From IMG/VR virus record IMGVR_UViG_2563366988_000007, positions 1 to 40,587 of that record: a DNA stretch of 40,587 nt; one strand, written 5' to 3'. A model generated the notes under the pieces. That model was not told where the DNA came from. It did not search any database and saw nothing but the letters and a program-made list of their open reading frames with translations. The position numbers and the translations under genes were made by a program. Position 1 is the first letter of the stretch, and every line of letters starts with the position of its first letter. The DNA is from a virus (Duplodnaviria > Heunggongvirae > Uroviricota > Caudoviricetes). Positions 6,514 through 35,508 of the stretch are shown piece by piece.

Positions 6514-6617
6514 GTTAAATCTCCAGATAGTCGCAGCACCCGTTGCGCCGCATATCTGGTTATTCTATTACCTGTAAAACCACATATGGATAGAAAGGCT
6601 GTAAATACGAATAGATA

Positions 6618-6632
6618 TTACCTTTCAGGTAA
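6618..6632. promoter_or_regulatory. Operator-like palindrome TTACC-N5-GGTAA (ttacctttcaggtaa)
   Basis: Perfect 5+5 inverted repeat; identical 15-mer at 25228. Confidence 0.5.
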
Positions 6633-6966: not shown

Positions 6967-7104
6967 GGTTTGCAATTACCAAGTGGAGTGCTTATATTTA
7001 CCTTTGAGATAAATTTACATCGCACTCCTCTTGTGCCATAGTAATCGGGCACTGGCAAAATCCAGTGCCGGGATTGGCGTCCCGGATTACTAAAAGGCGC
7101 ATTC

Positions 7105-7124
7105 ACCGCGCAAGCGGTTTTTTT
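7105..7124 (+). terminator. Intrinsic terminator (accgc-gcaa-gcggt plus T7)
   Basis: caccgcgcaagcggttttttt. Confidence 0.5.
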
Positions 7125-7281
7125 ATGCGTATAGCACGGCCACATTCGTATTATGGTGGGCTGTGTGGGGGCACCGAAAGGTGCGCCGGGTCCTTTTAGC
7201 CGGTTACGCCAACCCTGCACAGTTCACCACCAACCGATTGGCGTCGGTAGTGGTGATTAACCAGACTAAAAGGTAACCACT

Positions 7282-22947: not shown

Positions 22948-23240
22948 TCCTGTTCACTGGCCTCTTTGGCCATCTTCAAATACTGTTCAGGGCAATGCGC
23001 CATAACGCGCTGAAACAGTTCCAGCGCCAGATTGCGTTGCCCCTCATTAAATGCCATTGCCATAGCGTCCATCGGTGAGATAGCGGAAAACACACGGCCT
23101 TTCTCCAGCACCGACCAGACAACGCGACGCCCCTGTTCACTGCTCATGACAAAGCGAATGTCATCAATTTCACGCTGCGCCATGTCACGTTGCTTACGGG
23201 CGTTTTCTTCTTTCAGTTGATCGTCTTCGTAATCTGTCAT
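22944..23240 (-). CDS. Small head-morphogenesis protein
   Basis: 98-aa ORF, overlapping stop/start with portal and scaffold. Confidence 0.45.
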   Translation of the reverse strand: MTDYEDDQLKEENARKQRDMAQREIDDIRFVMSSEQGRRVVWSVLEKGRVFSAISPMDAMAMAFNEGQRNLALELFQRVMAHCPEQYLKMAKEASEQE

Positions 23241-24922
23241 TGTGATTGCCCACCCTGACCACTAACTGCATTCGCCATAGCTGACAAAACACTCGGATCC
23301 GAAGTTTTAGCTTCACTTAGCGTCTTGGCACCCTGTGCCGCCGCCATCCCCATCGCCATCATTTGTTGCTGCTGTTGTTGCTGTGCCCGTTGCTGGCGAG
23401 CCTGCTCAACCTGTTCCTGCGGAACAATGACGGTTGGAGACACTCCGGACATATCAGCGAATGCATCGATCGCCTGATCAACGTTGAGTTTGTCGAGAGC
23501 TTCTGGTTTCGCTTGCGCAAGTTGACCAATGAAGTTGACCGTAGACGCCAGACTGGACAGGCCGATAGACTTCTGCGCCTGAGCCATGACGGAAATGTAT
23601 TCGACCTTCAGGGGCATACCTTCCATCGCGTCAGGCGGTGGCGGCAGCATGTTTTTACGCACCATCATCGAGAAAGCGCGGTCAATGAGAGGATTAAGAC
23701 ATTCGTCGTTCAGACGCTCCAGAACCGGCCCCAACATCAGAAGTTTTTCTTCTTTCATTTCGATCACCGCTTCAACAGGCATCGAGCGGGTATTGATGTT
23801 CTGCAACATCATGAACAGATCGACAAAGTAGGCGCTGTTAATGATTTGACGGGTGTCCTGAATGTCTGCCACCAAATCTGCTGTACTGGGGTTAACCAGA
23901 TAAGCAGGCCTGAAACCATCCTGACCAGTAATCTGATCGATATACGTGATGTCGCCAGGAAGAAGGGAGGCACGCTGATTCTTGAGGGAAGTCGGAGCAA
24001 CCATCGGCGGATTGGTGGCTTTATCAATCAACTGCGACTTGCGCTTCTGGAGAAGCTGCAATGCCTTAACAGGTCCAAGCGCCAGCATACCCGGGCATGA
24101 TGATCCATAAACATCTTCGCCGTTAACTTCCCAGCGCGGAGCCATAATTGGAAACTCATCGAATCCGGACTCACGCAACAACTTGTCGTTATCGCCACCA
24201 ACCTCGTAATAAACCGATTTGAATGGCTTGTTCTTGCTATCCAGCTTCGATGTATCGCGGTCAATGTTCGGGTAAACCGAATGCATCACTTCAATCCACT
24301 TCTCGTAGGTGCCGCTTTCCCACATGCTTTTTACGGATTCGCTGACGTTATTTAGCCCGAACTCCTGAACAAGCTGACGAACAGTCATAGAGAACTTGCG
24401 AAAACAGGTGTCCACACTGCCACGAGGTGAGTTAGCCAGGTAGTAACTGCCTATCGGGAATGGCATTGTGCGAATGATGTCCTCGTCATCCTCCAGCACC
24501 GCCATTGCACCAGTGCTGTATGTGCCGAGGCTTCCGTATAACTGCGGAAGAGACTGGTAGAGATTCGACTTATTGAACATATCGTTCATGCGGTTCTGCA
24601 CCGCCTCGAGCCACAACTTAACAGGACCATAATCCATCATTTCAGGATCTGGCGTAGCCAGGCGAAACCACGGACGCGCAGGGCTTGTGATGCCTGACAT
24701 CATGCCGCTGGCGAGAGTGCGCGCCGCCATAGTCCCGGTCGAATCAATAATGCGTGTATTGCGTCGATCGTTACGGTTGACTTCAGAAGTCAGAAAGCGG
24801 GAACCACGCGGGTTGATGTAATCACTCAACTCGCGCCAGTGCGGCTCGAACGACTGACGCTCGCTTTCAAGTTGTGCGAACTGTTTGTTCAATCGCTCTT
24901 TAGTTGTTTCCGCCATTTCCAT
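23237..24922 (-). CDS. Portal protein
   Basis: 561-aa ORF directly after terminase block; poly-Q C-terminal tail. Confidence 0.75.
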   Translation of the reverse strand: MEMAETTKERLNKQFAQLESERQSFEPHWRELSDYINPRGSRFLTSEVNRNDRRNTRIIDSTGTMAARTLASGMMSGITSPARPWFRLATPDPEMMDYGPVKLWLEAVQNRMNDMFNKSNLYQSLPQLYGSLGTYSTGAMAVLEDDEDIIRTMPFPIGSYYLANSPRGSVDTCFRKFSMTVRQLVQEFGLNNVSESVKSMWESGTYEKWIEVMHSVYPNIDRDTSKLDSKNKPFKSVYYEVGGDNDKLLRESGFDEFPIMAPRWEVNGEDVYGSSCPGMLALGPVKALQLLQKRKSQLIDKATNPPMVAPTSLKNQRASLLPGDITYIDQITGQDGFRPAYLVNPSTADLVADIQDTRQIINSAYFVDLFMMLQNINTRSMPVEAVIEMKEEKLLMLGPVLERLNDECLNPLIDRAFSMMVRKNMLPPPPDAMEGMPLKVEYISVMAQAQKSIGLSSLASTVNFIGQLAQAKPEALDKLNVDQAIDAFADMSGVSPTVIVPQEQVEQARQQRAQQQQQQQMMAMGMAAAQGAKTLSEAKTSDPSVLSAMANAVSGQGGQSQ

Positions 24923-24930
24923 GACTCCGG

Positions 24931-25137
24931 TTACTGACCAAGCAGCGTTTTACCGCTGGTATTAGCGGTTGATGTGTCGCCCTGAGAACCGGTAAGCAGC
25001 GTAGAACTACGACCAGCAGCAGCGCGACGGCGACGTGTTTCTTCGTCGCGGGCATCAACAACGGCGGCATCCTGCTCCTGTGGTGCTGCCTGAACTTCTG
25101 GTGTTGCAGGCACTGATGGTGAGCTACCCATGCACAT
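24931..25137 (-). CDS. Possible small low-complexity protein upstream of portal
   Basis: 68-aa ORF, weak SD, Ala/Thr/Ser-rich; could be non-coding. Confidence 0.25.
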   Translation of the reverse strand: MCMGSSPSVPATPEVQAAPQEQDAAVVDARDEETRRRRAAAGRSSTLLTGSQGDTSTANTSGKTLLGQ

Positions 25138-25227
25138 ATCAATGACTCCGTACGCAATTAAATTATTACCAATTTAACCACATATGATTTATTTATCGTA
25201 GAAGGTTGACATTTAACGCGTTAATTA

Positions 25228-25242
25228 TTACCTTTCAGGTAA
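25228..25242. promoter_or_regulatory. Operator-like palindrome TTACC-N5-GGTAA (ttacctttcaggtaa) preceded by TTGACA
   Basis: Identical to 6618 site; TTGACA at 25206-25211. Confidence 0.5.
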
Positions 25243-25564
25243 CCAAAGGGCTCATTCTGGTTACTAACCTGACTGGCTTGTCGTTAAATTAAACAGGTGG
25301 AGTGAGCTTTTATTTTGAGCAGTACGGCGTATGGCACATGCGCCGATAGCGGTCTGGATACGTTTAAGGGGCACCCTCCCTTGCTCGGGCAAACGAACCA
25401 GGTAGCCGGAATGTGCAAGTCGAGCGGTTTTATTCCGCGCACGGGGATTCACCATCCCGGCGATTCGATGTGACGCCTCGGAAGAGACGAGGGTACAACG
25501 ATGAGAGCATTTATGGAGCCGCGACAAAGTGTGGCGCCTTAACAGGCTAAGTGCTCTCAGCGTT

Positions 25565-25641
25565 GTGGCATTAGCTCAGTTGGACAGAGCAACCGCCTTC
25601 TAAGCGGTTGGTCGCAGGTTCGAATCCTGCATGCCACGCCA
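25565..25641 (+). tRNA. tRNA-Arg, anticodon UCU
   Basis: Cloverleaf folded by hand: acceptor GTGGCAT/ATGCCAC, D-arm GCTC/GAGC, anticodon stem ACCGC/GCGGT with loop CTTCTAA, T-arm GCAGG-TTCGAAT-CCTGC, discriminator G, encoded CCA. Confidence 0.85.
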
Positions 25642-25684
25642 GAATCACGCCTAAGGACCGTGATGCCAGAAGTTCCAGGTGCTT

Positions 25685-25727
25685 GGCGGTGATAGTTTCC
25701 CTTGAAGGACTATCACCGCCCTTTTTA
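25685..25727 (+). terminator. Intrinsic terminator downstream of tRNA (12-bp stem ggcggtgatagt/actatcaccgcc plus T-tract)
   Basis: Read directly. Confidence 0.5.
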
Positions 25728-25804
25728 CAGCAGGACGCCATTGCGATGACTTCATGCTGTAAACCCGTACAGCCACGGAAGGCATAACTCATTGCTTCCA
25801 GTTC

Positions 25805-25828
25805 GCCCGGTTCGCCGGGCATTTTTTT
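25805..25828 (+). terminator. Hairpin with UUCG tetraloop (gcccgg-ttcg-ccgggc) followed by T7
   Basis: Read directly; abuts SD of gp49-like gene. Confidence 0.4.
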
Positions 25829-25839
25829 AAGGTGAGATT

Positions 25840-26214
25840 ATGAACGACCAGCAAATCGAAAAAGAAATCGTTGAGAAAGGCAAAACCGCTCCGCGTGTAA
25901 CACCCGAGAAAATTGAAGGCCTCATTTGCAGTGAGCATTTTTTCACTGCTGCGCAGGGTGACCACCAGGCTAAAGAAGATGACCTTATTTATAATCCGGA
26001 GCCTTATGTCGAAGCCACCCCTGATGCTCTGCACCTTCTCACTTTCTGCGTATTGGTACTGAAGAATGGCTTCACCGTTACCGGAGAGAGTGCCTGTGCA
26101 AGCCCGGAAAACTTTGATGCAGAAATTGGTCGGAAGATTGCCCGGCAGAATGCTGTAAACAAAATCTGGATGCTCGAAGGTTACTTGCTGAAGCAGAAGT
26201 TAAGCGAGCAATAA
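25840..26214 (+). CDS. Gp49-like phage protein (N4 gp49 / Sf6 gp66 family), moron
   Basis: Motifs LICSEHFF, GFTVTGESACASPENFD, IGRKIARQNA; SD aaggtgag. Confidence 0.55.
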   Translation: MNDQQIEKEIVEKGKTAPRVTPEKIEGLICSEHFFTAAQGDHQAKEDDLIYNPEPYVEATPDALHLLTFCVLVLKNGFTVTGESACASPENFDAEIGRKIARQNAVNKIWMLEGYLLKQKLSEQ

Positions 26215-26218
26215 CACC

Positions 26219-26230
26219 GTGACATGTCAC
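26219..26230. repeat. 12-bp perfect palindrome GTGACATGTCAC (copy 2 of 3)
   Basis: Exact; flanked by AACACC as at copy 3. Confidence 0.6.
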
Positions 26231-26232
26231 AA

Positions 26233-26262
26233 ACAGCCAGCCGATGAGCTGGCTTTGTTTTA
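26233..26262 (+). terminator. Intrinsic terminator (cagccagc-cgatga-gctggct plus ttgtttt)
   Basis: Read directly after gp49-like gene. Confidence 0.45.
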
Positions 26263-26304
26263 TCCTCACCAGAGGATATCAGCAGTATTATCCCCACCAG
26301 CGGA

Positions 26305-27780
26305 TTAAGCATAAGGGTCATAATCCGTTATGGCCCTTCCCTGCTGGCTTTGCTGTCCAGGTATATTTATGCGTTTCGAGACCGGGAAAGCAAACGTCAG
26401 CAGTAGCGCATCGCCTTTACCAGGAGAACGCCCAAGTCGCTCTTTGATATCTTCCTTCGGTTCGATAACGATTTTACCGTCCACTCGAACTTTGTACTCT
26501 GCCGCCGACAGGTCGTCTGCTGTTTCCTGGTCATCCAGCATGCCGCCCAGCCTCAGCCATGTCTTGCATGAATTGAACATCTCCCCACGCTTGTTGAGCA
26601 TCTGCGGGTCAGTAGACGCGCCACCGAACGGAACAAGTTGCCATGTACGACCCCAGCCGTCACCGATTGACTTCAAACCGGTTCCGTAACCGAAGTCGAT
26701 GAACACCGCGTCAGCCTGATACTGGTCTTCAAAGTCAGCGATACGCTTCGCCATAATCAGATCGTCGGTAGTCTTGTTGCCAGTCCACAGCACCTTACTG
26801 TGTAGCCCCTGCCGCAGGTATATCACAGCGTCATCAACGCCGGAGTATGCCGGGTCAACGCCGATTATCACCGGAGCATGTGCAACCTGCGCAGCGGTTA
26901 CCACCCGTTTCATTGCCTCGTCAGTAAGACCGGTAGGGATAAACTGCAATTCAGATGCATCAGGGAATATGCCACGCACACGGATTTTAACGAAGTCGCT
27001 GTCTTCCCCGTAGTCATCAACCCATTTCTGCAACTGCTGTTTGTTAGTGCCTTCCACCGTCCGGCTGTCAATCTGCGCAGTTTTCCAGCGGTGTTTATAT
27101 TTGCGGAAACATTCGCGAAAACGCCCGGTGTTACGTGTAGGGTTTCCGAACGCCACCCAGATAATCTCAGTGTCTTCGTCCGTAAGCGCACCCTCGGCAA
27201 CTTCCCACACCAGATCCGCAATGTTCGACGCTTCATCAAACACCACGATGATGCGTTTGCGCTCGTTGTGTAGTCCGGCGAATGCCTCGGTGTTGTGCTC
27301 AGACCAGGGTATTGCGTCAGCCCGCCACCGCTTGTCGTGCCCTAGGTCATTGCTGTACATCGCGGTAGCGGTACAGGTAAACCAGTCTTTCGTGATAGCA
27401 AGGTTCGACCACTTGATAATTTCCGGCCAGGTCTTCGTTCGTAGCTGGTTGTCGGTGTTGGCGGTCACCACGACCTTACAATCCTCGCAAGTGGACATGC
27501 CCCAGTTGATCAGCATTGAGATGAATGCGGATTTACCAATACCGTGACCAGAAGCGCGTGCCAGCATAAGCGGCTGATAGCGCGTCTCTGGATTCTGCAG
27601 GTGATCACGTATCTCTCGGAACGCATCAGCCTGCCACTGACGTGGGCCGGTGGCATGTGCCAGTTCAGTCCCCTCTTCCCCCCATGGGAACGCATAGAGG
27701 GCATAGCCAAGCGGATCGTGAGTGAACCCTGCAATATCCTCGATTAACTGCTCTTCAGGAGATAACGCTGTATCTGTCAC
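26305..27780 (-). CDS. Terminase large subunit
   Basis: Walker A-like ASGHGIGKS, ATPase plus C-terminal nuclease layout, 491 aa. Confidence 0.85.
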   Translation of the reverse strand: MTDTALSPEEQLIEDIAGFTHDPLGYALYAFPWGEEGTELAHATGPRQWQADAFREIRDHLQNPETRYQPLMLARASGHGIGKSAFISMLINWGMSTCEDCKVVVTANTDNQLRTKTWPEIIKWSNLAITKDWFTCTATAMYSNDLGHDKRWRADAIPWSEHNTEAFAGLHNERKRIIVVFDEASNIADLVWEVAEGALTDEDTEIIWVAFGNPTRNTGRFRECFRKYKHRWKTAQIDSRTVEGTNKQQLQKWVDDYGEDSDFVKIRVRGIFPDASELQFIPTGLTDEAMKRVVTAAQVAHAPVIIGVDPAYSGVDDAVIYLRQGLHSKVLWTGNKTTDDLIMAKRIADFEDQYQADAVFIDFGYGTGLKSIGDGWGRTWQLVPFGGASTDPQMLNKRGEMFNSCKTWLRLGGMLDDQETADDLSAAEYKVRVDGKIVIEPKEDIKERLGRSPGKGDALLLTFAFPVSKRINIPGQQSQQGRAITDYDPYA

Positions 27781-34518: not shown

Positions 34519-34749
34519 TCATGAGTAGAAGAAGTATGCCAGTTCTGCTTTTGAGCGCAGCCATTGTCTTGTTTTACAGGCTTTAAAAAGCCCATTCATC
34601 AATACCTTACCTGGCATTTTGCGCTTACCTGTTAAGTGAGTCTGGATATAGTGACTCGTCGTTCCGGCTTCCTGTGCGAAGGCTTCACGCTCATCCGGAG
34701 TAAGTGCAAGCCAGTGCTTTTTGAAATCGAAATGTCCGTTATCGCTCAT
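34519..34749 (-). CDS. Cro-like regulator (divergent from repressor)
   Basis: 76 aa, position divergent to repressor across operator cluster. Confidence 0.5.
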   Translation of the reverse strand: MSDNGHFDFKKHWLALTPDEREAFAQEAGTTSHYIQTHLTGKRKMPGKVLMNGLFKACKTRQWLRSKAELAYFFYS

Positions 34750-34785
34750 AGCTATTGCCTGATATTTATTTCAGATAATAAATAT

Positions 34786-34841
34786 TCACCCATAAGGTAA
34801 CAAAAATCAAGGATAGTTACCTACGGGGTGCATTTACCTGT
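34786..34841. promoter_or_regulatory. Immunity operator cluster: three overlapping TTACC-N5-GGTAA-type sites (34786-34800 imperfect, 34809-34823 half, 34827-34841 perfect)
   Basis: tcacccataaggtaa / ttacctacggggtgc / ttacctgttgggtaa between cro and repressor. Confidence 0.55.
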
Positions 34842-34903
34842 TGGGTAATATTGCTTTAAATTGAATCATCTACTGATTCATATATGAGGCGATTTTCCAG
34901 AAA

Positions 34904-35488
34904 ATGAAAAGTATCCAGGACGTCCGCAGGCAAAATCTCAACGACTTGATCGACCGTGAATTCAATGGTGTTCAGACGCGGATGGCAGAAAAACTTGGAA
35001 CTCAGGCAAATCTGGTAAACCGCTGGGCTCTTGGCAAGAAGGTTATCGGCGACCAGGTTGCGCGAAAAATTGAAGCTGCCGCCAATAAACCCCGTAACTG
35101 GCTTGATATCGATCGCTCGCTTTCTCAGGAAGGTTTTCAGCCTGTCGGCCCAAGCGACATTGGTCAGCTGGCGGCTCACAACCTGGAACGCTGGATGAGC
35201 GAAAGCCGCGACCTTTCAACACAGGGAAAACTTCACCGCGCATCCGGCGTCGCCCAGGTGACAATCAGCCGCCTGTTAAACAATGAGGTCAGCGTTTCCA
35301 TTTCCACCCTGGAGAATGTTGCATCCGCATTCGGGCGTCACGGCTATGAATTACTGATTCACCCGCACGACCCTGCGACTATCAACTATGACCGCTCGCG
35401 CTACGCATTGTTACCCGAAACAGAGAAGGCAAAGATCGAAAGTTACATTGAATTTGTCATCAGCCAGAACGAAAAAAACAAACAATAA
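34904..35488 (+). CDS. Immunity repressor, tandem HTH (XRE-type) domains, no LexA-like S24 autocleavage domain
   Basis: Two HTH-like segments (QTRMAEKLGTQANLVNRW and ASGVAQVTISRLLNNE); no GDSM/Ser-Lys peptidase motif. Confidence 0.7.
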   Translation: MKSIQDVRRQNLNDLIDREFNGVQTRMAEKLGTQANLVNRWALGKKVIGDQVARKIEAAANKPRNWLDIDRSLSQEGFQPVGPSDIGQLAAHNLERWMSESRDLSTQGKLHRASGVAQVTISRLLNNEVSVSISTLENVASAFGRHGYELLIHPHDPATINYDRSRYALLPETEKAKIESYIEFVISQNEKNKQ

Positions 35489-35508
35489 AATCATATTTTT
35501 CAGTAAGT

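Follow-up and report, generated by a model that had tools for sequence, protein, structure and literature searches.

A covarying, pseudoknotted leader RNA of Uetakevirus prophages, its relatives in lambdoid and P1-like phages, and its possible part in early anti-defence gene expression

Introduction

The described systems that come closest to the locus considered here include the nut sites of lambda (the boxB loop of nutL reads GAAGA), the species 1 and 2 RNAs of the T4 tRNA cluster, which are stable RNAs linked to tRNAs, and the put element of phage HK022. The latter spans about 70 nucleotides (nt) and folds into two stem-loops (PMC9378689). Early antitermination in lambdoid phages of the yfdP/Q/R type that lack an N gene was stated in 2025 to be unexplained and possibly put-like (PMC12315714). 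Among phage proteins, PF13876 represents the Acb4 family of sponges directed against the cyclic oligonucleotide-based anti-phage signaling system (CBASS), and eight of the eight homologues assayed bound 3'3'-cGAMP (PMC11722364). This report deals with a stretch of 40,587 nt (IMG/VR record IMGVR_UViG_2563366988_000007; hereafter the window), a near-complete Escherichia coli prophage of the phiV10/epsilon15 type (Uetakevirus), and in particular with its plus-strand cassette at 25206-26262, which comprises a long structured leader RNA, a tRNA-Arg(UCU) gene, terminators and a cargo gene of the Acb4 type. The tRNA, the cargo gene and the terminators are of known kinds; the leader RNA is the part for which no earlier description was found.

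The leader RNA

The central part of the leader (Domain 1) is a widely shared, covarying and pseudoknotted RNA family without a match in Rfam. In the window it is preceded by a stem module (M1) and followed by a three-way junction of about the size of a tRNA (P6), as follows.

25245-25316, plus strand: leader module M1, a long stem of AAAGGGCUCAUUC with GGAGUGAGCUUUU and then a U-rich run (centroid fold)
25325-25492, plus strand: Domain 1, about 170 nt, pseudoknotted
25325-25345, plus strand: hairpin P1, with a GCA loop
25354-25401, plus strand: P2
25401-25419, plus strand: invariant single-stranded segment of 19 nt, GGUAGCCGGAAUGUGCAAG
25424-25438, plus strand: P3
25444-25458, plus strand: P4
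25450-25453 with 25467-25470, plus strand: pseudoknot between CACC of the P4 loop and GGUG
25476-25492, plus strand: P5, a boxB-like hairpin with the loop GAAGAGA
25496-25565, plus strand: P6, three-way junction of about 70 nt (fold z = -4.95)

Covariation was assessed on 32 non-redundant sequences, and the structure derived from them consists of P1, P2, P4, the pseudoknot and P5. Its 26 pairs are 95.7% paired and 12 of them are changed on both sides (81 cells); none of 500 shuffles equalled this result, and the score of 0.319 compares with 0.08 or less in slid controls. The pseudoknot covaries as well (C-G 28, A-U 4). G-U pairs are abundant in Domain 1, and their frequency in the helices places the RNA on the plus strand. 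The region 25240-25645 folds better than its shuffles (z = -3.4). At position 25468 the window has an A where a G is found in 31 of the 32 relatives and in the 99.9% identical prophage of strain FDAARGOS_1303.

The single-stranded 19-mer is nearly invariant across genera. Six scans with IUPAC single-base variants of its AUGUGC hexamer returned only 15 copies of the element (plus three chance matches), and none of the rare variants of the 19-mer carries a compensating change; among five kinds of change, two keep a wobble pair and three break a long-range helix, GCACAU/AUGUGC, that is preferred by RNAalifold. This helix was rejected as part of the structure, being pairable in 99.4% of the cells but invariant, with natural variants that are uncompensated.

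P6 is formed by CAACG (25496-25500) paired with CGUUG (25561-25565) and by GAGAGCA paired with UGCUCUC, with two apical hairpins inside. Its last pair uses G25565, which is position 1 of the tRNA, and P6 thus abuts the tRNA. Both stems covary among relatives and the apical insert is variable, the compensatory variants including GAGAGUA/UACUCUC, GAUGGCU/AGUCAUC, GAGAGCGCA/UGCGCUC, AAAAGGCG/CGCCGUUU and GAU..AGC with AGG..CC. M1 is a degenerate copy of an ACAAC...GUUGUG module that recurs in related leaders and is homologous to the modules of Klebsiella, epsilon15, Tyrion, BUCT708 and mEp390 that bear the motif GUCGUUAAAU. At three loci (L136; L133, from SPN1S; L130, from 1720a-02) the apical inserts of P6 hold T-arm-like hairpins (GGGGUUCGAUUCCCC, GUCCGUUCGAUUCGGAC and CUGGUUCAAUUCCAG), and relatives without a tRNA have a helix GUUGUGG/CCACAAC in the place of the acceptor stem. 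There are hints in these sequences that leader modules may be tRNA-derived or tRNA mimics.

An earlier reading of the window, made by a model from the letters alone (the sequence-only reading), had described the leader as non-coding, GC-rich and hairpin-rich, had regarded its minus-strand open reading frame (ORF; 25264-25527) as probably non-coding and had suggested that a second non-coding RNA may be present. The fold and the covarying helices agree with the first and the last of these statements. With regard to the minus-strand ORF, 46 of 500 shuffles contain a frame as long, so that its stop-free length is unremarkable, and there is no in-frame conservation among relatives, in which the 19-mer is read in three frames; it was therefore not retained as a gene. 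An N-like, arginine-rich mini-ORF located after P6 (VVNAQADARK...) was discarded too, as it is not conserved and its sequence forms an RNA hairpin.

A scan of 24900-26400 against Rfam 15, of the kind that the sequence-only reading had proposed, gave no match at E <= 10 on the plus strand of the leader (25243-25564), the only overlap with the latter being a 14.1-bit chance match on the minus strand (25231-25319). Nothing was detected over Domain 1 in seven related loci at E <= 0.5, and at gathering scores the whole window contains isrK, C4 and the tRNA only. A literature search on conserved sequence strings of the leader RNA found no paper that describes it, and one for transcriptomes of P1 brought nothing relevant.

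Distribution and genomic contexts

Positions 25324-25568 of the leader are about 82% identical to unannotated DNA of lambdoid phages (cdtI, mEp460, twelve Stx2c phages, Stx2a_WGPS2 and 1720a-02), and positions 25324-25486 are about 79% identical to P1, P7, D6, SJ46 and RCS47. Pattern scans extended the family to 119 or more IMG/VR contigs and to 23 species-representative genomes; apart from one Bacillota-labelled metagenome-assembled genome, all of these belong to Enterobacteriaceae or close relatives (e.g., Kosakonia, Phytobacter, Citrobacter, Kluyvera, Klebsiella, Enterobacter, and Erwinia dacicola). The core of Domain 1 occurs in 2148 of 5426 complete E. coli genomes (about 40%) in up to four copies each, and 554 of the places are on plasmids. 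Among the matches listed, 28 of 30 have no annotation under the core and the other two overlap hypothetical-protein calls.

The element is found on three backbones. In Uetakeviruses the order is promoter, M1, Domain 1, P6, tRNA-Arg (31 loci), trailer hairpin, terminator T1, spacer, terminator T2 and cargo, and in the 31 loci the tRNA begins at the last pair of P6. In P1-like phages Domain 1 lies in the C1-controlled ban operon and starts 15 nt after the end of tRNA-Ile2 (trnI), a spacing present in 27 loci. Lambdoid phages of at least five immunity types have the element downstream of a cI-like gene and on the same strand, within an untranslated stretch of 430-780 nt; those with the element in the stretch ahead of the early-left genes include cdtI, 1720a-02, Stx2a_WGPS2, mEp390, and BUCT708. 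The element is followed there by one or two strong terminators and then by genes of the yfdP/yfdQ/yfdR type or other early-left genes. In cdtI, the only phage in which the promoter was read, it starts about 50 nt past a PL-like promoter that has an inverted repeat resembling an operator. The stretches of the five phages just named carry no annotated N gene, and none was seen in cdtI, WGPS2 and 1720a-02 or in the window. The element occurs without any tRNA in 97 of about 157 loci, and a terminator with a folding free energy of -15 kcal/mol or lower is located 240-670 nt past the core in 23 of 32 context clusters.

Each locus has one copy of Domain 1. With a Domain 1 profile, nhmmer found neither a second copy in the same phage (an analogue of putR) nor any Domain 1 in HK022. 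Phage LLS has no Domain 1 either; it carries a related M/P6-type module and an RprA-like T1. In epsilon15 (L005, 2313-2380, compared with L132 and L133) most of Domain 1, P6 and the tRNA are gone, and the junction falls in a 13-nt repeat, UUCCCUUGAUGCU, which is present at the apex of P2 and at the apex of T1 in the relatives of this phage. The pattern points to loss of the intervening DNA through recombination of one repeat with the other.

The cassette

As read from its sequence, the segment 25206-26262 is a single plus-strand transcription unit, antisense to the Uetakevirus late operon and slotted between terL and the gp3-like and portal genes. Apart from the leader RNA it contains the following features.

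25206-25243, plus strand: cassette promoter, with -35 TTGACA (25206-25211), a 17-nt spacer and -10 TACCTT (25229-25234)
25228-25242: probable operator palindrome TTACC-N5-GGTAA, overlapping the -10
25565-25641, plus strand: tRNA-Arg with anticodon UCU and encoded CCA (ARAGORN; Rfam RF00005, 73.3 bits, gathering score 29)
25644-25664, plus strand: trailer hairpin AUCACG..CGUGAU
25685-25720, plus strand: terminator T1, 14-bp stem, apical loop UUUCCCUUGAAGG, U-tract to 25728
25729-25828, plus strand: conserved structured spacer of about 100 nt, ending in T2
25805-25820, plus strand: strong terminator T2, GCCCGG-UUCG-CCGGGC and then U7
25840-26214, plus strand: Acb4-family gene, 124 amino acids, ribosome-binding site AAGGUGA from 25829
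26235-26254 (feature to 26262), plus strand: terminator T3, closing the cassette before the convergent terL

The promoter appears to be sigma-70-like and the predicted transcription start is at about 25241. It was missed by a consensus scan, as its -10 agrees with the consensus at three of six positions only, and was read directly from the sequence; the arrangement is kept in every Uetakevirus compared (relatives from E. coli, Salmonella, Klebsiella, and Enterobacter). The window contains 13 copies of the palindrome (at 6618, 6998, 8050, 25228, 28373, 28391, 32448, 32510, 34449, 34786, 34834, 35546, and 35608), where 0.54 would be expected. Some copies flank the cI-like gene, which lies at 34905-35489, the cro-like gene and the prophage's own PL, others are scattered over late and accessory regions, and the GenBank record of epsilon15 labels the homologous site as a repressor and integration host factor site. 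The palindrome is probably the operator of the prophage repressor and, because it overlaps the -10, the cassette is most likely an early lytic, repressor-controlled unit that would be silent in the lysogen and fire early after induction. The Uetakevirus's own PL does not have such a leader RNA. Four Uetakevirus contigs from IMG/VR (L104, L022, L091, and L121) have no cargo gene directly after T2; L104, L022 and L091 continue with a further operator-like palindrome (UUACC-N5-GGUA), which in the first and the last of these precedes a membrane/coiled-coil protein of 280-296 amino acids.

The tRNA, a gp49-like gene, three bounding terminators and a structured non-coding leader had been placed by the sequence-only reading on the plus strand between terL and the portal gene, and all of them are present. 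The promoter, which had been allowed to lie within the leader (25243-25564), is located just upstream of it (25206-25234). The label of moron understates the unit, which, given its own operator-overlapped promoter, is likely to be an early cassette and not a classic moron.

The tRNA-Arg gene is genuine, with a score well above threshold, a perfect 7-bp acceptor stem, a canonical cloverleaf and UCU at positions 34-36. In an alignment that also included phage homologues, its acceptor and anticodon stems differ from those of K-12 argU by compensatory changes, and it is close to argU in the D arm, the T arm and the anticodon loop. The same anticodon is found in argU and in the phage tRNA-Arg(UCU) genes (argN/argO of Stx phages); these are simple tRNA genes, whereas the tRNA of the window sits inside a long structured transcript. 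The codon-usage analysis that had been suggested together with the tRNA call gave 12.1 AGA+AGG codons per 1000 across the ORFs of the prophage. They cluster in the genes for the endosialidase tailspike, internal virion proteins and replication; the capsid and portal genes have almost none. The overall frequency is about three to four times that of an average E. coli gene set, which makes it plausible that the tRNA serves codon supply.

By count alone, terminator-like sites are not above chance (3 versus 2.2 +/- 1.6 in shuffles). T1 and T2 are conserved with compensatory changes in their stems in every Uetakevirus compared (e.g., GCCCAC-UUCG-GUGGGC for T2), and the site of T3 is marked as a rho-independent terminator in the phiV10 record. 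T3 has flanking A/U runs and is possibly bidirectional, being weak on the minus strand. Conservation of the T1-T2 spacer among Uetakeviruses does not depend on which cargo follows, the downstream gene being variable. It consists of two hairpins plus the strong U7 terminator, a shape resembling the 3' end of Hfq-type small RNAs, and in Rfam it gives weak, chance-level matches only (RyhB, 18 bits).

The PL leaders of LLS and BUCT708 contain an RprA-like module, with the shared run UUGCUGUGUGUAGUCUU, and it is with the terminator of this module that T1 is syntenic. The Rfam RprA scores of this module are 39.7 bits in LLS (PQ299149; L164, 5894-5992, minus strand) and 50.2 bits in BUCT708 (L128, 2631-2750, plus strand), both below the gathering score of 70 bits for this family (RF00034). 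The module of LLS contains a 25-nt run identical to the 3' half of K-12 RprA. The module lies in an early operon, as does the terminator-defined small RNA PreS/LPR1 of lambda (at tL2a); a search for literature on prophage RprA-like RNAs found none. The likeness to RprA and PreS concerns the T1 module, not Domain 1, and in the window the seed is degenerate and no Rfam RprA match was obtained.

The cargo gene and the accessory slot

The cargo ORF, the gp49-like gene of the sequence-only reading, scores 118.1 bits on PF13876 (N4 gp49/Sf6 gp66; cut-off 27) and can be assigned more precisely to the Acb4 family. A profile built from 27 homologues matches PDB 9e4w (SPO1 Acb4) with E = 7.8e-5. The AlphaFold model has a predicted local distance difference test score (pLDDT) of 81, and in Foldseek the PDB ranks 1-13 are all 9e4w (probability 1.00, target-normalised template modelling score 0.61-0.69). 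The product is probably a cyclic-dinucleotide sponge against CBASS. It shares with SPO1 Acb4 the membership in PF13876 and the predicted fold and differs from it by an N-terminal extension.

Other Uetakeviruses and P1-like phages carry different genes at this place. The Klebsiella phage ST512-KPC3phi13.3 has a Tad2-like gene (91.7 bits) in the slot occupied by the Acb4-family gene in the window, and another Tad2-like gene (39 bits) stands right after the element-containing leader of a P1-like phage. Considering all loci, the first ORFs after the leader fall into 23 clusters (yfdP-like, ban, Acb4, Tad2-like, RdgC-like, HNH, and others), and the slot is therefore a variable accessory/anti-defence position.

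Possible functions of the leader RNA

The reading that we prefer, while putting it somewhat short of an even chance, is that Domain 1 and P6 form a cis-acting element for terminator read-through analogous to put. Upon loss of repression the cassette promoter would fire and the nascent Domain 1/P6 RNA would act in cis, as put of HK022 does, on the RNA polymerase that is transcribing it. A fraction of the polymerases would then pass T1 and T2, giving early expression of the anti-defence cargo, and a cut by RNase P at G25565 together with tRNA 3' processing would free the tRNA for the decoding of AGA and AGG. Since T2 ends 1 nt short of the cargo ribosome-binding site (12 nt short of the start codon) and no promoter-like site was found in the interval between T1 and the cargo, the latter would be made only by read-through. 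We infer read-through itself from the layout alone, which consists of an operator-overlapped promoter, a covarying RNA and terminators ahead of the first ORF. The early-left operon of the N-less lambdoids appears to depend on passing the same kind of terminators; the near-invariant 19-mer, with its rare uncompensated variants, fits a contact with conserved host machinery, and anti-defence cargo such as Acb4 and Tad2-like proteins fits a need for early expression.

The put RNAs of HK022 (putL and putR) suppress termination in cis without a protein factor and bind the zinc-binding domain of the beta' subunit of RNA polymerase. Like put, the element of the lambdoid relatives is positioned past an early promoter and ahead of terminators in N-less phages and has conserved unpaired bases. 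In contrast to the small size and simple fold of put, it spans 170-250 nt and has five or six helices plus a pseudoknot, and whereas put comes as a left and right pair, it is present once per phage and occurs in P1 without a terminator after it. As for the nut sites, P5, with its 5-bp GC stem and purine loop, recalls boxB of nutL, and the 3' strand of P6 (UGCUCUCA, or UGCUCUUU in relatives) resembles the boxA of lambda nut and rrn and is followed by a GU-rich run; the order and spacing of the elements differ, and no N-like gene was found in the loci examined. The reading of this strand as a single-stranded boxA (CGCUCUUA/UGCUCUUUAACAA) is doubtful, given that it is base-paired and is not conserved, relatives carrying AGUCAUCU or CGCCGUUU. 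The species 1 and 2 RNAs of T4 offer a parallel, since in both cases a structured RNA without coding function is transcribed together with an adjoining phage tRNA and may have its ends defined by the enzymes of tRNA processing; the present element is unrelated to them in sequence, and most of its loci have no tRNA.

Several observations weigh against a put-like function. In prototype P1, Domain 1 is retained although P6 and a strong downstream terminator are absent, and Domain 1 must therefore have some value apart from T1/T2. LLS is N-less and viable with an M/P6-type module and no Domain 1, and epsilon15 is a working phage despite the loss of most of Domain 1 and of the tRNA. In the window, the G-to-A change at 25468 breaks one of the four pseudoknot pairs. 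No sequence or architectural likeness to HK022 put was found (nhmmer; blastn of three leaders, best E 0.27). Finally, the role of the terminators may be no more than to delimit stable small RNAs, in the way tL2a delimits PreS of lambda, with the cargo expressed by leak-through. It is rather doubtful, though possible, that Domain 1 plus P6 represents a new class of protein-independent, RNA-polymerase-modifying antiterminator RNA, unrelated to put and present in N-less lambdoids (including Stx2a and Stx2c converting phages), Uetakeviruses and P1-like phages, which would rely on it to express accessory and anti-defence genes early, past strong terminators.

The occurrence in P1 is accommodated by the main rival explanation, which we consider possible but rather doubtful, namely that Domain 1, alone or together with P6, functions in trans as a stable RNA made early in lytic growth and excised by tRNA processing. 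Its role would be to bind, or serve as a decoy for, a host factor that is conserved, such as a defence sensor, a nuclease, an RNA chaperone, or RNA polymerase in trans. This fits all three contexts, including that of P1 with no terminator following, and agrees with the exact junctions with tRNAs in two backbones (tRNA-Arg in 31 loci, tRNA-Ile2 in 27), at which the RNA would be released by RNase P at the 5' end of tRNA-Arg and by 3' maturation of tRNA-Ile2, respectively. Both the pseudoknot and the unvarying, unpaired 19-mer point to a specific partner, the element travels in cassettes with anti-defence cargo, and lambda provides a precedent for early-left small RNAs defined by terminators. On the other hand, a complementary site is absent from the E. 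coli core genome (the core of the element being matched in only 2148 of 5426 genomes), nothing obvious sets the 3' end of such an RNA in lambdoids, and the expression of the genes past T1/T2 would be left unexplained. An improbable alternative is that the leader, sensing a small molecule or protein, switches between conformations as a riboswitch or factor-responsive RNA would, and so chooses between termination at T1/T2 and read-through. The terminators stand 120-500 nt from the core, in this locus with a whole tRNA in between, which is unlike any known expression platform, and there is no Rfam riboswitch match. Mutually exclusive pairings do exist, since GUUGUGG can pair with the upstream CAAC (P6a) or, in relatives lacking a tRNA, with the downstream CCACAAC, and an 11-bp long-range helix, for which 99.4% of the cells can pair, could form in place of P1; this helix shows no covariation and four kinds of natural variant break it without compensation. 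High sequence invariance, as seen here, is typical of ligand pockets.

That the cassette is an antisense or convergent device against the late operon, acting through RNase III cleavage of the late mRNA or through transcription collision, seems very improbable. It opposes the sole path from terL to the portal and head genes, and the epsilon15 record marks an RNase III site on the late strand opposite M1; yet in the PL leaders of lambdoids and in the ban operon of P1 the same RNA is antisense to no annotated gene, and the G-U pairs indicate selection on the plus-strand fold. Least probable of all is an ordinary phage tRNA moron whose 320 nt would represent a promoter plus tRNA 5' leader (or a pac site), functionless and conserved by recent common descent. 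Compensatory changes across genera, a covarying pseudoknot and occurrence on three unrelated backbones are not what neutral descent would leave, and the promoter is upstream of the leader rather than within it; this holds even though tRNA-Arg(UCU) genes are widespread among phages, AGA and AGG are frequent in the prophage and epsilon15 lives without most of the element. The pac-type site that the sequence-only reading had entertained is unlikely because the same RNA occupies lambdoid PL leaders and the P1 ban operon, places that a pac site would not take; P1's own pac lies in pacA.

Its position makes the leader RNA a means to address directly the question of antitermination in N-less lambdoids (PMC12315714). 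Should the put-like read-through that we favour be true, this would be a second mechanism of antitermination by RNA only; an RNA acting in trans alongside anti-defence genes would instead be a candidate counter-defence factor at the RNA level. Either way, the element is the mark of a portable cassette for the early expression of sponge genes against CBASS and Thoeris and could help to find new anti-defence genes.

Neighbouring genes and other observations in the prophage

The genes around the cassette belong to the late operon, and terS, the head genes and the tail genes are on the minus strand of the window too.

23237-24922, minus strand: portal gene
24931-25137, minus strand: gp3-like gene, 68 amino acids, PHROG 831, divergent neighbour of the cassette
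26305-27780, minus strand: terL

The gp3-like protein carries an arginine-rich run, DEETRRRRAAAGR (ETRRRRAAAGR). It was set aside, as its gene sits on the late strand.

The queried segment has 99.9% identity to prophages of three complete E. coli genomes; with phiV10 and with the O157 typing phages 9 and 10 the identity is 96-97%. Between the window and the near-identical FDAARGOS_1303 prophage there is an offset of 256 bp near the cI-like gene (window, about 34600-35500), and coordinates of the Prokaryotic Genome Annotation Pipeline cannot be carried over either to the left of about 16 kb. Insertions or deletions beyond the queried segment thus distinguish the two prophages.

Two full-length Rfam matches were obtained on the plus strand in another part of the window, isrK at 7049-7124 (77.9 bits) and C4 antisense RNA at 7149-7234 (77.7 bits). 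They are located upstream of, and within the start of, a BRO-N antirepressor-like gene, with a 17-bp copy of the operator (ATTACCTTTCAGGTAAT) upstream at 6616-6632, and the region looks like the immI-like module of P1. The same pair of isrK and C4 is held by the PR operon of phage cdtI (L006, 277-465).

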